NCBI GenBank assembly: GCA_037134355.1
Contig: JBAXMJ010000005.1
Location: 1-53,581 of the forward strand
From: a bacterium
Lineage (GTDB): Bacteria > Verrucomicrobiota > Kiritimatiellia > CAIKKV01 > CAITUY01
Length of the DNA stretch: 53,581 bases
Direction: 5' to 3'
Part shown: positions 24,104-35,323 of the stretch, in pieces
How positions within the stretch are numbered: position 1 is the first letter of the stretch
Layout: each line of letters opens with the position of its first letter
Program-made: the position numbers and the translations under genes
Notes under the pieces: model-generated
What the model was told of the DNA's origin: nothing
Databases searched by the model: none
Seen by the model: only the letters and a program-made list of their open reading frames with translations

Positions 24104-24517
24104 ATGGGCATTATGGACAAGACGGCATTACTGGATCTGATTTATGTGATGACATTTTTTGCTGGTGGCCTGGTTCTGGCCATCAGTCCGATGGTCTTGG
24201 CGCATCTTCTGGCGCCCCGGCGCACGCGGTCGGTCTCGGGAAAAACCTTGGATGTCATTGAGTGCGGCGTTCCGACGATTGGCGCCACCTGGATCCGATA
24301 CGGAGTCGTGTATTATCTTTACGCCCTGATATTCGTGGCGTTTGCCGTGGATGTCCTTTTCCTGTTTCCCGTCGCCGTCATCTACAATGAGACTCCGGGT
24401 CTGACCGAACTTTTTGAGTTCCTCCTCTTTGTAGGAATCCTGACCCTTGTTATCGTGTATGCCTGGAAGAAAGGAGTGTTCACTTGGACGAGCAAACTCA
24501 AGTCCCTCCCGGATTGA
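24104..24517 (+). CDS. nuoA: Complex I subunit A
   Basis: [25 protein letters not shown]. Confidence 0.93.
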
Positions 24518-24999
24518 TTCATTTCTCGGTACTGGACGAGGTTCTGGATCTGGCCCGCGCGAATTCGTTGTGGCCGATGACCTTCGGACTGGCCTGTTGC
24601 GCCATTGAGATGATGGCCACCGGGGCCGCACGCTTTGACATGGCCCGGTTTGGATGCGAAGTCTTTCGTCCCTCACCCCGCCAGTGCGATCTCATGATTG
24701 TCTGCGGCACCATCAACAAGAAGATGGCACCTGCCGTGGCCACACTCTATGACCAGATGCCCGAACCCAAGTGGGTGATCGCGATGGGGAACTGTGCGAT
24801 CTCGGGGGGGCCCTTTGTCTTCCCCGGCCAGTACGCCGTCGTTGAAGGGGCCGACAAACTATTCCCCGTCGATGTTTACATACCCGGATGTCCGCCCCGG
24901 CCGGAAGCGCTCATCGAGGGAATCCTTGAATTGGAGAAAAAACTCACCGGCAAGCGCCGCTGGCCGGTTGCCCCACCCCAGTTAAGGGAGACTCCATGA
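24484..24999 (+). CDS. nuoB: Complex I subunit B
   Basis: [11 protein letters not shown] (tandem Cys), [16 protein letters not shown] start with AAGGAG RBS. Confidence 0.95.
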
Positions 25000-25436
25000 C
25001 CCTTGCTGAGTTATCAACCCAACTCCAGGCACTCCAGGGATCGACGGTTACCGCGACGGATCACTCCAAACAAGGCGTGAATCTGGATGTAACCATCACT
25101 TCAAACATGATTCCAGAAGTGGCCCGCCTCATGGGTGAGGCCAAGTTTGCCCTGGAGGCCATTACCGGAGTGGACTGGTTGGCAGAACAACAGATTGAGA
25201 TCGTGTACGACTTTACCTGTTATGCCACCGGTGTGCGTGTGGCGGCTCGAACCCGGGTCTCCCGCGAAACTCCGGAAGTAGCCTCAATCTCAGCTGTGCA
25301 TCCGGGTGCAAACTGGCATGAGCGCGAATCCCATGATTTCTTCGGGATCACGTTCACCGGGCATCCCGGACTGATCCCGCTTCTGCTTCCCGAGGATGCT
25401 GATTTCCATCCGCTTCGAAAGGACTACGGAACGTGA
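24996..25436 (+). CDS. nuoC: Complex I subunit C (short)
   Basis: ITGVDW, ANWHERE..DFFGI.F.GHP, HPLRKD; ends just after this motif. Confidence 0.93.
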
Positions 25437-32383: not shown

Positions 32384-33880
32384 ATGGATGTCTTTCTTTT
32401 TAATGGTTCGTGGCCGCTCCTGAGCGTCCTGATTTTTCTACCTCTGGCAGGCGCCTGCCTTCTGCCGTTGATGAGGGGAGCCCGGGCCGCCAAGATCTGG
32501 GTTTTGGGCGTGACGCTCGTCAACGCCGCACTTTCGCTCAAGCTCTACACCGGCTTTGATCTCTCGACCGCCCAATACCAGTTTGCCGAGACAGCCCGAT
32601 GGATCCCCTCGTTGAACATCTGCTACACATTGGGGGTCGACGGAATCAGTCTGCTTCTGGTGATCATGACCACCCTCTTGATGCCCCTGTGCGTGCTGTG
32701 CTCGTGGAATGCGATCGGAACGCGCGTCAAGGAGTTCCTTGCGTGCATCCTGGTAATGGAAACCTCGATGCTCGGAGTCTTCCTGTCGCTTGATTTTGTG
32801 CTGTTCTATATTTTCTGGGAAGCAATGCTGATTCCAATGTTCCTGCTGATCGGCGTCTGGGGCGGGCCACGAAAAATCTACGCCTCAGTTAAGTTTTTCC
32901 TCTACACGCTGGCGGGGTCGGTACTGTTGCCGGTGGCCATCATCGCGCTCTACCTGCACAGCGCGCCGCACACCTTTTCGATCCCGGCCCTAATGGGTCT
33001 GCCGCTCGCCGCCTCGCTCCAGAAGTGGCTGTTCCTGGCGTTTTTCATCGGGTTCGCCATCAAGGTTCCGATGTTCCCGTTCCATACGTGGCTTCCGGCG
33101 GCCCACGTGGAAGCCCCGACGGCGGGTAGCGTGCTCCTGGCCAGTGTGCTCCTCAAGATGGGAACCTACGGGTTTCTCCGGTTCTGTCTCCCCATCACCC
33201 CGCTGGGCGTCGAGGCGTTCGCGCCGGTCGTCATCGGGCTGTCGATCGTCGGAATTATCTACGGCGGTCTCACGGCGCTGGCCCAGACAGACATGAAGCG
33301 CCTGGTGGCCTATTCCAGCGTCGCTCACATGGGCTTTGTCACCCTTGGAATCTTTGTCCTGAACACCAACGGGGTTGAAGGCGCCATGCTCCAGATGATT
33401 AACCACGGGATCACCACCGGCGCTCTTTTCCTGTGCGTCGGCATGATTTACGAACGCACCCACAGTCGGGAATTAGCGAACGCAACAGGCATCGGAAAAG
33501 TCATGCCGATCTATGTCACCGCCCTGGCCGTATTCAGCCTTTCCTCTCTGGCCTTTCCCGGCACCAACAGTTTTATCGGCGAGTTCCTGGTGCTTGCCGG
33601 GACATTTGCCTTTTCCGGTAAGATTGCCATGCTGGCCATCCCGGGCGTAGTTCTGGGCGCCGCCTATATGCTGCGCATGATCCAGCGCATCATCTGGGGT
33701 GGGGTTTCAAACCCCGACACCTCCGCGCTTAAGGATTTGAACACGAGGGAAATCATCACTCTTGCACCGTTGCTGGTCCTCGTTCTGTGGATCGGCCTGG
33801 CGCCCACGGGGTTTATGGACACATTCCACGCCAGTGTCGCCCACCTGCTCCAACAATTTCATACGGGACTTAAACTCTAG
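32384..33880 (+). CDS. nuoM: Complex I subunit M
   Basis: GVDGIS, FWEAMLIPM, IKVP.FP.HTWLP.AHVEAPT.GS..LA..LLKMG.YG. Confidence 0.95.
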   Translation: MDVFLFNGSWPLLSVLIFLPLAGACLLPLMRGARAAKIWVLGVTLVNAALSLKLYTGFDLSTAQYQFAETARWIPSLNICYTLGVDGISLLLVIMTTLLMPLCVLCSWNAIGTRVKEFLACILVMETSMLGVFLSLDFVLFYIFWEAMLIPMFLLIGVWGGPRKIYASVKFFLYTLAGSVLLPVAIIALYLHSAPHTFSIPALMGLPLAASLQKWLFLAFFIGFAIKVPMFPFHTWLPAAHVEAPTAGSVLLASVLLKMGTYGFLRFCLPITPLGVEAFAPVVIGLSIVGIIYGGLTALAQTDMKRLVAYSSVAHMGFVTLGIFVLNTNGVEGAMLQMINHGITTGALFLCVGMIYERTHSRELANATGIGKVMPIYVTALAVFSLSSLAFPGTNSFIGEFLVLAGTFAFSGKIAMLAIPGVVLGAAYMLRMIQRIIWGGVSNPDTSALKDLNTREIITLAPLLVLVLWIGLAPTGFMDTFHASVAHLLQQFHTGLKL

Positions 33881-33898
33881 ACCGGGAAGCAATTCACC

Positions 33899-35323
33899 AT
33901 GATTCTGAAACTGTTTTCGCCTGAACTTGTAGTCATTCTCGGCAGTCTGATCGTCTTCACGGTCAGCCTCGGCCAGGGACGGGCAAGACTGGCCGCCGCC
34001 GTCACGACCGTCACCGCACTGCTGGCATTGGCCCTGAGCCTGGTTTCGCTTGCCTGGCACGGGGAACTCTTCCAGCACGCCCTGCGGATCGACCTGTATT
34101 CCCAATTGTTCAAGGTGTTTATTTTGCTGGGTCTGGCCGGGGTGGCCATTTTCGGAAACCTGCTCAAGGATATCCGCGACGATGTCCGGCCTGAGTATTT
34201 CCTGTTTCTGCTGCTGGGCACGTTGGGGATGATGATTCTGGTGAGCAGTATTGAGCTGATCACCTTATTTGTCGCCCTGGAACTGGCCTCCTACGCCCTT
34301 TTCCTTCTTGTGCCGTTGCGCCAGGAACGGCCCGGCCTTCGCATCCAGATGGAGTCCGCGGCCAAATATGTGATGTTTGGAATTGTGGCGACGGGCATCA
34401 TGTTGTTTGGCATGAGCTATATTTTCGGACTGACCGGATCCACCTATTTCCATGATATTGCCCCCGCTCTCCTGCAACGCTGGAACGATCCATCCGCCAT
34501 CGTCGGAATTCTTCTTGTTCTCGGGGGACTTTTATTCAAGTTGGCGGCGTTCCCCATGCACCTGTGGGCGCCGGATGTCTACCAGGGAGCTTCCAATGAA
34601 ACGACGGCCTTCATCGCCGGAGTTCCCAAGGCCGCCGTGATGGCGGTGATGATCCGATTTTTATTGTGTGCGAATCCCTCCGACCATGTCCTGGCTGCGG
34701 TACTCACCGTAGTCGCGATTGCCTCGATGGGCTTTGGAAATCTGGCGGCGCTTGCTCAAAAAGACATCAAGCGTATGCTCGCCTATTCCAGCATTGCCCA
34801 TGCCGGGTATGTACTGCTGGGCCTGGTCACTTTGCGCAACACCGGTTACGCGGCGTCGATCTTCTATATCCTCGGGTTTGTGGTCATGAGTCTGGCGGCA
34901 TTCCTGGTCATCTGCCTCGTATCCCGCACCGGAGAGAATGTGCTGATTGACGATCTTTCCGGACTGCATTCCCGTTCGCCCCTGGCAGCCTTGATCCTGG
35001 GCGTCAGCATGTTTGCGCTCGCCGGGATCCCGCCCTTTGCAGGATTCATGGGCAAGTTCTTCCTCTTGACCGAAGCACTCCGGAGCGGCCTGATCATGCT
35101 GGTGATCGTGGCGGCGGTGAATACCGCCATCGGCATCTACTACTACCTGACCGTTGTGCGGGTCATGTATTTCTCCGGAGCCGGCACTCGCCAACCCGTC
35201 AGGTTGGGAACTATCAATTCTGCATTGGGTCTGGTGCTGCTGGTCATTGTTGTGCTGCTGGGCGTCATGCCCTCCTTCCTGCTGGACCTCGCCCTCACCG
35301 CTGTCCGCGCCACAGCGCGATAA
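33899..35323 (+). CDS. nuoN: Complex I subunit N
   Basis: E.A.KY, FKLAAFP.HLWAPDVYQGA, KRMLAYSSIAHAGY, AGIPP..GF.GK. Confidence 0.95.
   Translation: MILKLFSPELVVILGSLIVFTVSLGQGRARLAAAVTTVTALLALALSLVSLAWHGELFQHALRIDLYSQLFKVFILLGLAGVAIFGNLLKDIRDDVRPEYFLFLLLGTLGMMILVSSIELITLFVALELASYALFLLVPLRQERPGLRIQMESAAKYVMFGIVATGIMLFGMSYIFGLTGSTYFHDIAPALLQRWNDPSAIVGILLVLGGLLFKLAAFPMHLWAPDVYQGASNETTAFIAGVPKAAVMAVMIRFLLCANPSDHVLAAVLTVVAIASMGFGNLAALAQKDIKRMLAYSSIAHAGYVLLGLVTLRNTGYAASIFYILGFVVMSLAAFLVICLVSRTGENVLIDDLSGLHSRSPLAALILGVSMFALAGIPPFAGFMGKFFLLTEALRSGLIMLVIVAAVNTAIGIYYYLTVVRVMYFSGAGTRQPVRLGTINSALGLVLLVIVVLLGVMPSFLLDLALTAVRATAR

Follow-up and report, generated by a model that had tools for sequence, protein, structure and literature searches.

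Which enzyme is encoded by a nuo operon in which nuoL is missing and three other genes stand in its place? The question is raised by a contig of a bacterium of the class Kiritimatiellia (JBAXMJ010000005.1, assembly GCA_037134355.1), of which the stretch analyzed here, 53,581 nucleotides (nt) in full, is referred to as the window. Positions 24104–35323 of the window harbor, on the forward (+) strand, a 13-gene operon with the order nuoA-B-C-D-H-I-J-K-X1-s85-X2-nuoM-nuoN, wherein X1 denotes a 492-amino-acid (aa) antiporter-like protein ('MrpD1'), s85 a protein of 85 aa, and X2 a protein of 597 aa ('MrpD2'). Family assignment of the window genes with the Pfam and NCBIfam profile libraries at their curated cut-offs recovered nuoABCDHIJK, the 492-aa antiporter, the 85-aa protein, the ∼597-aa antiporter, nuoM, and nuoN, all on the + strand and at the positions given in a preliminary description of this DNA. 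These libraries revealed neither nuoE, nuoF, nor nuoG in the operon, the nuoD–nuoH interval included, which confirms the absence of nuoEFG claimed in that description, and no gene of the operon was assigned to the NuoL family by NCBIfam.

The intergenic distances across the 13 genes range from −34 to +23 nt, with a 4-nt overlap at six junctions. Because the 13 genes share one strand and either overlap or stand no more than 23 nt apart, no nuoL is present, and the X1-s85-X2 trio always lies between nuo genes, it is likely that the operon specifies a single membrane-bound complex I devoid of the N-module, with four antiporter-like modules plus s85, in which the roles of NuoL are split. In such a complex, NuoB, NuoC, NuoD, and NuoI would form the Q-module on NuoH/A/J/K, and the proton-pumping arm would consist of NuoN, NuoM, X2, and X1 together with s85. 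The architectural half of NuoL would fall to X2, with transmembrane helix (TM) 15, a long lateral helix, and TM16 as its anchor, whereas X1 would contribute the helix-8 His of the MrpA/NuoL type along with all of the pump residues. The earlier proposal that the trio stands in the place of NuoL, with the lateral helix on the second large protein, agreed with gene order, structural comparison by Foldseek, and comparison of linker lengths.

The C-Terminal Tail and the TM7 Site of X2

X2 (30587..32380, + strand, as are all its features below) comprises 597 aa when read from ATG and 601 aa when read from GTG at 30575, and matches the NCBIfam model NF009310 with 739 bits (cut-off 564). Its tail (nt 32060–32380, residues 492–597) contains the motif FDWNVIDGVVDGLARTVRSSGDRIRHLQT and had been described as NuoL-like and amphipathic. 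The AlphaFold2 model bears this out at low confidence, showing a 45-residue helix (497–541) followed by a helix spanning residues 545–596 that ends in TM16. TM15 was modeled at residues 461–481 (31967..32029) and the lateral amphipathic helix (HL) at residues ∼497–575 (32075..32311), the latter as two helical segments of low confidence, while the model together with the linker comparison placed the TM16 anchor at residues ∼576–596 (32312..32374). Foldseek aligned X2 over ∼600–690 columns with MrpA, HycC, NdhF, and NuoL chains and over ∼490–530 columns with D-/M-type chains. Hidden Markov models of NuoL align through the last residue of X2, yet far under their cut-offs (149 bits on TIGR01974, cut-off 407.5; 147 bits on NF005141, cut-off 556). 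As modeled, X2 carries the NuoL-type TM15, lateral helix, and TM16, which X1 lacks. The linker between TM15 and TM16 is ∼86 aa in X2, ∼85 aa in the X2 of Sinorhizobium meliloti, ∼80 aa in a canonical NuoL of the same genome, and ∼75 aa in Escherichia coli NuoL. As the X2 linker of ∼86 aa compares with 75–80 aa in canonical NuoL, the lateral helix is, by this measure, of ordinary length.

The solved protein closest in sequence to X2 is MbsH' of Pyrococcus MBS (6u8y_X, 134 bits), the key residues of which are named in the accessible text of PMC7684303, the TM7 Lys being K217. The polar residues of X2 are Glu125 (TM5), Asn200 (TM7), Lys231 (TM8), His301/His305/Lys309, and Lys364 (TM12). Alignment with MbsH' and with NuoM and NuoN of the operon itself placed Asn200 (codon 31184..31186) at the site of the TM7 Lys, a residue termed universally conserved in the part of Sperling et al. 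available. Counts for related loci, here and below, refer to the best 80 of at least 572 stretches encoding X2 relatives in species-representative genomes. The TM7 site of X2 was Asn in 79 of these 80 orthologues, the remaining one showing no motif match, and it was likewise Asn in S. meliloti X2; the same site was Lys in NuoM (74/74) and NuoN (61/61) of the related loci. The central polar axis of X2 looks continuous owing to the retention of Glu125, Lys231, His301/His305/Lys309, and Lys364, and X2 without the TM7 Lys may relay charge along this axis rather than take up a proton of its own. The extra pumping unit proposed in the preliminary description is thus half sustained: four antiporter-like genes are present, but an extra pump is insecure because X2 lacks the TM7 Lys in 79/80 orthologues. 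The stoichiometry of the complex need not be 'canonical plus one'.

X1 and Its Polar Residues

X1 (28868..30346, +; 492 aa) belongs to PF00361 and matches NF006236 with 809 bits (cut-off 663). It has a 14-TM core and ends after TM14, without TM15, HL, or TM16; both the APTPVSALLH motif reported for it earlier and the lack of a C-terminal helix were verified. On PF00662, the NuoL/MrpA N-terminal domain, X1 scored 24.4 bits, just below the cut-off of 24.5, and on the NuoL models TIGR01974 and NF005141 it scored 189 and 209 bits (cut-offs 407.5 and 556). Its polar residues are Glu144 (TM5), Lys228 (TM7), His253 and Lys259 (TM8), and Lys404 (TM12). Among 36 X1 orthologues, E144, K228, H253, and K404 were invariant and K259 nearly so, and the TM7 site was Lys in 75 of 77 orthologues, two giving no motif match. 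A helix-8 His plus Lys is the pattern of MrpA (Steiner and Sazanov, PMC7419157, accessible sections). The solved proteins closest to X1 in sequence are MbhH (149 bits), MrpA, and MbsH.

Phylogeny and Family Membership

A tree of 45 sequences was calculated under LG+G4 by a quick search, with support from the Shimodaira–Hasegawa-like approximate likelihood ratio test (SH-aLRT) and with Mbh and Mbs sequences left out. X1 and X2 formed one clade each, the rhizobial protein included, with support of 100 and long stems; neither was nested within MrpA, MrpD, NuoL, NuoM, NuoN, or Hyf, the deep nodes of the tree being weak. The 'Mrp-type' identity given to the two proteins in the preliminary description did not withstand this phylogeny, and the term is, as far as sequence relationships indicate, an annotation label only. 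Both X1 and X2 remained under the cut-offs of the NuoL models, on which the genome's own NuoL reached 605 bits (TIGR01974) and 651 bits (NF005141). NCBI equivalog models exist for both X1 (NF006236) and X2 (NF009310).

The proposed Mrp cation path has been placed in the MrpA C-terminal domain and MrpB, C, E, F, and G (Steiner and Sazanov, PMC7419157, accessible sections). In searches with Pfam and NCBIfam, the operon yielded neither this MrpA domain nor any of these five subunits; because of the absence of these cation-path components, the built-in Na+/H+ exchange suggested earlier appears to be without homology support. No full-length MrpA-type match was found in the genome, the top match to the MrpA model being the canonical NuoL (271 bits vs the cut-off of 920). 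All 11 PF00361 genes of the genome lie within nuo, Ech, and Hyf-type clusters.

The same data bear on the alternative that X1-s85-X2 works independently as a cation/proton antiporter of the Mrp kind and is only encoded alongside the nuo genes, for which the NCBIfam name of both proteins, antiporter subunit D, could be cited. This alternative is very improbable. The missing Mrp subunits and domain, the assignment of all 11 PF00361 genes, the NuoL identity of the top MrpA-model match, and the position of X1 and X2 outside the Mrp clades are all at odds with it; without the trio, moreover, the operon would have no NuoL, and the gene overlaps suggest translational coupling of the trio to nuoK and nuoM.

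Relation to Green Complex I and Other Known Systems

For rhizobia, a complex I in which two MrpD-like subunits replace NuoL and MrpD2 bears the HL is on record under the name 'green complex I' (Yu et al., 2022, PMC9040806), and the 2016 paper on it has been summarized by Lindstrom and Mousavi (2019, PMC7415380); both sources are drawn on from their accessible text. The split-NuoL design is therefore already described, and the operon of the window belongs to the green-type family as a member that is headless and keeps the canonical order: it has no NuoL, it has two antiporter-like genes with the HL on the second, and these are orthologous to the rhizobial pair. The different, possibly new route to an extra unit that the preliminary description had envisaged is accordingly in print, and no new category is created by a four-module membrane arm of this type.

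A plasmid protein search with X2 gave top matches on Sinorhizobium and Rhizobium megaplasmids. On pSymA of S. meliloti (L087) the order is J-K-X1(487 aa)-hypothetical(84 aa)-X2(586 aa)-M-N-A-B-C-D-E-F-G, with X1 annotated as 'antiporter subunit D family' and X2 as 'Na+/H+ antiporter subunit D'. The two systems share the K-X1-small-X2(HL)-M-N cassette, the TM7 Asn, and nearly the same linker (∼85 vs 86 aa). They differ in that the rhizobial operon contains nuoE, nuoF, and nuoG in a rearranged order, whereas the operon of the window has none of these three and keeps the canonical A-B-C-D-H-I-J-K order, so that it does not belong to the rhizobial operon type. Identity between S. meliloti and the window was 54% for X1, 48% for the small protein, 50% for X2, and 54% for M; in the core it was 38% for N, 28% for A, 33% for C, 41% for D, 33% for J, and 40% for K.

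A variant order, K-M-X1-s85-X2-N, was found at five related loci (L049, L051, L061, L072, and L073) and at the incomplete L071, all from Desulfocapsa/Desulfobulbales metagenome-assembled genomes (MAGs). At these loci M, X1, and X2 were 68–72% identical to those of the window, and A–K and N 28–59% (28–46% apart from NuoB, which showed 57–59%). In the tree, NuoN of the rhizobial operon and of a variant-order locus grouped with E. coli NuoN, and NuoM, X1, and X2 of both grouped with those of the window. The tree grouping and the identity pattern together argue that the four genes X1-s85-X2-M are exchanged as one cassette among Nuo backbones, of which three were encountered: the headless canonical order, the Desulfocapsa type, and the rhizobial type with NuoEFG. 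The Manganitrophus hybrid of the literature, as far as its description was accessible, would be a fourth. A NuoG/FdhA-like open reading frame, cut at the locus edge, was seen on the same strand upstream of nuoA in three of the variant-order loci, and a NuoF match was present in one of two variant-order genomes examined, on a contig not tied to the locus.

Other relatives share parts of this design. Complex_I_3 of Candidatus Manganitrophaceae (PMC9040806, accessible text) likewise has a green-related MrpD-like pair in place of NuoL with the HL on MrpD2; it differs in having two NuoM, five modules, and a 26-aa insertion in the HL, against one NuoM and no insertion in the window. The 2M complex I of Nitrospira and others (Chadwick et al., 2018, ISME J, as cited by Yu et al., 2022) also has four antiporter-like modules, but its fourth module is a second NuoM and it retains a true NuoL with a lengthened helix, whereas NuoL is replaced in the window; with one nuoM and an HL linker of ∼86 aa vs 75–80 aa in the canonical form, the operon falls outside the 2M type. 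The absence of nuoEFG is shared with the NUO11 headless complex I of Desulfovibrio, Chlorobi, and cyanobacterial NDH-1, in which a single NuoL/NdhF occupies the place of X1, s85, and X2; the operon thus resembles NUO11 in its missing N-module genes and departs from it in having 13 genes instead of eleven with a single NuoL. The label 'NUO11+M' in the available part of PMC4758237 may cover clusters of this kind. Among solved structures, MbsH/MbsH' of Pyrococcus furiosus MBS (6u8y) and MbhH/MbhI of MBH (6cfw) are pairs that also carry TM15-HL-TM16 on one partner only. MbsH' retains the TM7 Lys (K217) where X2 has Asn, the redox module of MBS docks on the opposite side, and s85 has no detectable counterpart among solved chains.

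A literature search, the coverage of which did not include the original 2016 paper and Chadwick et al. (2018), found no text describing a headless form that carries the trio, or s85, or Asn at the TM7 site, or the ordinary X2 helix length, or the transferability of X1-s85-X2-M. What these four features add to present knowledge is modest. The conservation of s85 and the family-wide loss of the X2 TM7 Lys are concrete, testable features that bear on which antiporter-like modules take up and release protons and on what purpose the lateral helix serves. Since the cassette is portable, it also provides a natural experiment on how the module number of complex I changes. On the whole, the interpretation offered in the preliminary description is partly supported, and its anatomy was right.

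Probable Order of the Modules in the Membrane Arm

If the gene products assemble as proposed, the subunit order would most likely be N-M-X2-X1, with the X2 helix reaching back over M and N, X1 appended at the distal end, and s85 located where X1 and X2 join or close by. Tentatively, this may be taken further: X2 may be a strut and charge relay, X1 the real distal pump/exit module beyond the reach of the lateral helix and held by s85, and X1-s85-X2-M a cassette used on at least three backbones. If this is true, the enzyme would not simply be 'complex I plus one pump', and the jobs of NuoL would be distributed over three polypeptides.

Several points weigh against the proposed single, ferredoxin-linked complex in this form. 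Assembly into one complex is a prediction from the genes. None of the 24 runs listed for window positions 28500–33000 holds RNA data; all consist of contigs assembled from DNA, the source metagenomes being lake, freshwater, or unspecified. The X2 model is moderate, with a mean predicted local distance difference test (pLDDT) score of 66 and a pLDDT below 50 for residues 536–575 in the distal helix. NuoF-like genes number six in the genome, and one belongs to a NuoE-NuoF-FdhA cluster upstream of the operon. In rhizobia the cassette operates together with NuoEFG, and its use is thus not bound to ferredoxin. Finally, an order N-M-X1-X2 would by analogy mirror MbsH/MbsH', with the helix-bearing subunit outermost.

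This last order, in which X2 is outermost with its helix clamping X1 and M, as MbsH' clamps MbsH in archaeal MBS and MrpA clamps MrpD, and X1 is interior beside NuoM, is a possible but less favored arrangement. The closest solved relatives of the two proteins, MbsH' for X2 and MbhH, MrpA, and MbsH for X1, are in its favor, as is the HL-bearing subunit that ends the pump pair in MBS (PMC7684303, accessible text). The TM12 Glu of NuoM would normally face a TM5 Glu/TM7 Lys pair, which X1 has and X2 has not. On the other side, the gene order X1-s85-X2-M-N parallels the canonical L-M-N, distal to proximal, and the helix has the canonical length, its extension by 26 residues occurring only with the second NuoM of Candidatus Manganitrophus (PMC9040806, accessible text), as would suit a helix that already reaches NuoN from beside NuoM. 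Neither argument is decisive.

The Small Protein s85

The s85 gene (30343..30600, +) encodes a conserved two-TM protein of 85 aa found in neither Pfam nor NCBIfam, and it was present at 76 of the 80 related loci. An alignment of 52 sequences showed twelve invariant columns, a DKEHAHT loop, and a GIMxREDYY tail. The structural model (pLDDT 80) comprises an N-terminal helix, long helices at residues 14–35 and 51–72, and an acidic tail. A search of the model with Foldseek found nothing, an s85 profile gave only chance-level matches to PDB sequences (best E 0.019), and the ESM Atlas returned 'hypothetical protein' clusters only. Searched against 1.84 billion representatives, the profile matched 901 proteins at E ≤ 0.001; no fusion of s85 with an antiporter was seen among the best 150 of these, all of 51–201 aa. 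When a complex of X1, residues 93–495 of X2, and s85 was predicted, s85 as partner scored 0.45, and the control with X1 replaced scored 0.53, values that speak neither for nor against binding of s85 to either protein. By its sequence conservation, s85 thus appears as a strongly conserved subunit outside the assigned families.

Occurrence and Gene Order in Other Genomes

The scan of species-representative genomes yielded at least 598 pattern matches, of which at least 572 encode an X2 relative, and the earlier expectation that similar clusters occur in other anaerobes was borne out by this synteny survey. The best 80 loci came from MAGs labeled Verrucomicrobiota, Lentisphaerae, Kiritimatiellia, and Opitutae; from Desulfobulbales, other Thermodesulfobacteriota, and Desulfovibrio; and from single MAGs of Acidobacteriota, Chloroflexota, and Betaproteobacteria. 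X1-s85-X2 was contiguous at 77/80 loci, the remaining three being interrupted by a contig end; K-X1-s85-X2-M was found at 67/80 and the strict 13-gene order at 45/80. The recurrence of the gene order (67/80) together with the contiguity of the trio (77/80) places the arrangement far beyond chance. The nuoD–nuoH gap was at most 461 nt in all 65 loci holding both genes, and no conserved flanking genes were found across the 80 loci. Within the class of the window, the X2 family was present in 16 of 151 genomes sampled, in 4/4 of the same genus and in 8 of 88 genera, and its distribution is patchy; it was absent from all 14 control genomes. The green-type membrane arm is therefore far commoner than the rhizobial literature suggests, occurring in Planctomycetes–Verrucomicrobia–Chlamydiae (PVC) lineages and in Thermodesulfobacteriota, Acidobacteriota, Chloroflexota, and Betaproteobacteria MAGs, and in the MAG lineages found it is mostly without the NADH module.

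Q-Module, Genome Context, and Electron Donor

NuoB contains the tandem Cys38/Cys39 plus C104 and C136, the ligands of cluster N2; NuoD has HPATHG at residue 21 and RMDY at residue 71; and NuoI has two CxxCxxCxxxC (4Fe-4S) motifs at residues 63 and 103. Owing to these features, of which the tandem Cys and the two NuoD motifs had been pointed out before, the Q-site of the operon looks intact at the sequence level. NiFe-hydrogenase-type Cys motifs were found at neither end of NuoD. NuoI would receive electrons from a carrier of low potential, for which reduced ferredoxin is the likeliest candidate, and menaquinone would be reduced at the NuoD/NuoH site. Ferredoxin has been proposed as the donor of NUO11-type complexes (PMC4287179, PMC4758237), and headless nuo operons of Desulfovibrio, noted since about 2009–2011, have been read as ferredoxin-dependent (PMC4287179), as stated in the accessible text of these papers. 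The preliminary description regarded the complex as suited to the ferredoxin-to-quinone energy gap. This link loses strength in view of the rhizobial operon, in which the cassette occurs together with nuoEFG.

The genome (2.97 Mb, 275 contigs, 93% complete by marker genes) encodes further systems of this kind. An Ech-type [NiFe] hydrogenase of six genes (38058–43154, +) lies 2.7 kb downstream of nuoN and comprises an EchA-like protein of 637 aa (PF00662, PF00361), an EchB/NuoH-like protein of 288 aa, an EchC/NuoB-like protein (40847–41365), a NuoC-like protein, a large subunit of 360 aa (NiFeSe_Hases), and a 4Fe-4S subunit. Contig C108 (L090) carries a canonical nuo operon encoding NuoF, G, H, I, J, K, L, M, and N, with a NuoL of 615 aa, and contig C29 (L091) carries a Hyf-type cluster with two HyfB-like and one HyfF-like proteins, a fused NuoC/D-like protein, and a fused NuoI/B-like protein. 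Four complex-I-family systems are thus found within one 3-Mb genome. A futalosine-pathway menaquinone gene is present, and menA gave no match in this incomplete assembly. Judged by its gene set, the organism is probably anaerobic and both produces and consumes reduced ferredoxin; a ferredoxin donor and a menaquinone acceptor would be consistent with this.

Operation mainly in reverse, with the proton-motive force driving electrons from menaquinol to ferredoxin and the extra module raising H+/e−, has been proposed for 2M complexes and the Manganitrophus hybrid (PMC9040806, accessible text), and an operon without an NADH module would be compatible with it. It is unlikely here, given that Ech, Hyf-like hydrogenases, a formate dehydrogenase linked to NuoEF, and the second, canonical nuo operon point to a ferredoxin producer and not to a ferredoxin-short lithoautotroph, and the direction is not readable from sequence.

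The formate dehydrogenase is encoded 7.3 kb upstream of the operon and divergent from it, in a cluster (11674–16783, −) of a NuoE-like protein (172 aa), a NuoF-like protein (622 aa), and FdhA (980 aa), the last with a NuoG-like N-terminus and Fer2_4 and NADH-G_4Fe-4S_3 domains. Beyond this cluster lie molybdenum-cofactor genes (6511–11086, −) encoding MoeA, a MoaA-like protein, MoaC, a MobA-like protein, and MOSC/MoCF, plus a rubrerythrin. Docking of such a separately encoded NuoE/F/G-like module, either FdhA-NuoF-NuoE or the NuoF/NuoG of contig C108, would yield a formate- or NADH-dependent quinone reductase. The proximity of the cluster invites this reading, more so as the Fdh cluster directly adjoins nuoA in a close relative (L015), and rhizobial cassettes do work with NuoEFG. 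It is nonetheless quite improbable: an FdhA-like gene was near the operon at only 5/80 loci, three of them with only 31–33% identity, NuoE-like and NuoF-like genes were near it at 2/80 each, and the canonical operon of contig C108 has its own NuoG, H, I, J, K, L, M, and N. Modules of the NuoE/NuoF/FdhA type are, moreover, typically soluble dehydrogenases.

Core Genes, Transcription Signals, and Neighborhood

The core genes of the operon, all on the + strand, were assigned as follows: nuoA (24104..24517; PF00507, 90 bits), nuoB (24484..24999; NF005012, 231 bits), nuoC (24996..25436; PF00329, 107 bits), nuoD (25433..26551; PF00346, 297 bits, and NF004739, 437 bits, cut-off 360), nuoH (26548..27558; PF00146, 364 bits), nuoI (27563..28003; TIGR01971, 119.6 bits, cut-off 113), nuoJ (about 28000..28539; PF00499, 109 bits, the start being placed at a GTG overlapping the nuoI stop), and nuoK (28536..28862; PF00420, 79.5 bits), followed after the trio by nuoM (32384..33880; TIGR01972, 616 bits, with a TM12 Glu like that of canonical NuoM) and nuoN (33899..35323; TIGR01770, 363 bits, cut-off 332.6). 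The best sigma-70-like promoter match upstream of nuoA (24029..24057, +) is TTGTCA-17-TAAAAT, with 10/12 consensus positions, and is a consensus match only. A terminator scan gave 14 sites vs 12.6 expected, and no terminator-like site was found between nuoN and the next gene, which starts 37 nt past the nuoN stop and encodes a 509-aa NmrA-like NAD(P)H-binding protein with DUF2867 (35360–36889, +).

This NmrA/DUF2867 gene was near the operon at 1/80 related loci and a polyprenyl synthase gene at 2/80. In the window, a polyprenyl synthetase gene (36894–37814, −) lies between the nuo operon and Ech, and its homologue adjoins nuoA in L013 and L024. Upstream, a ParE toxin/Phd-YefM antitoxin pair is located at 18717–19273 (−). 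Between this pair and the operon, and divergent from nuoA, a cluster at 19455–23945 (−) encodes two radical-SAM/SPASM proteins, glutamyl-tRNA reductase (HemA), and a membrane protein of the cytochrome c assembly type, and may be heme-related.

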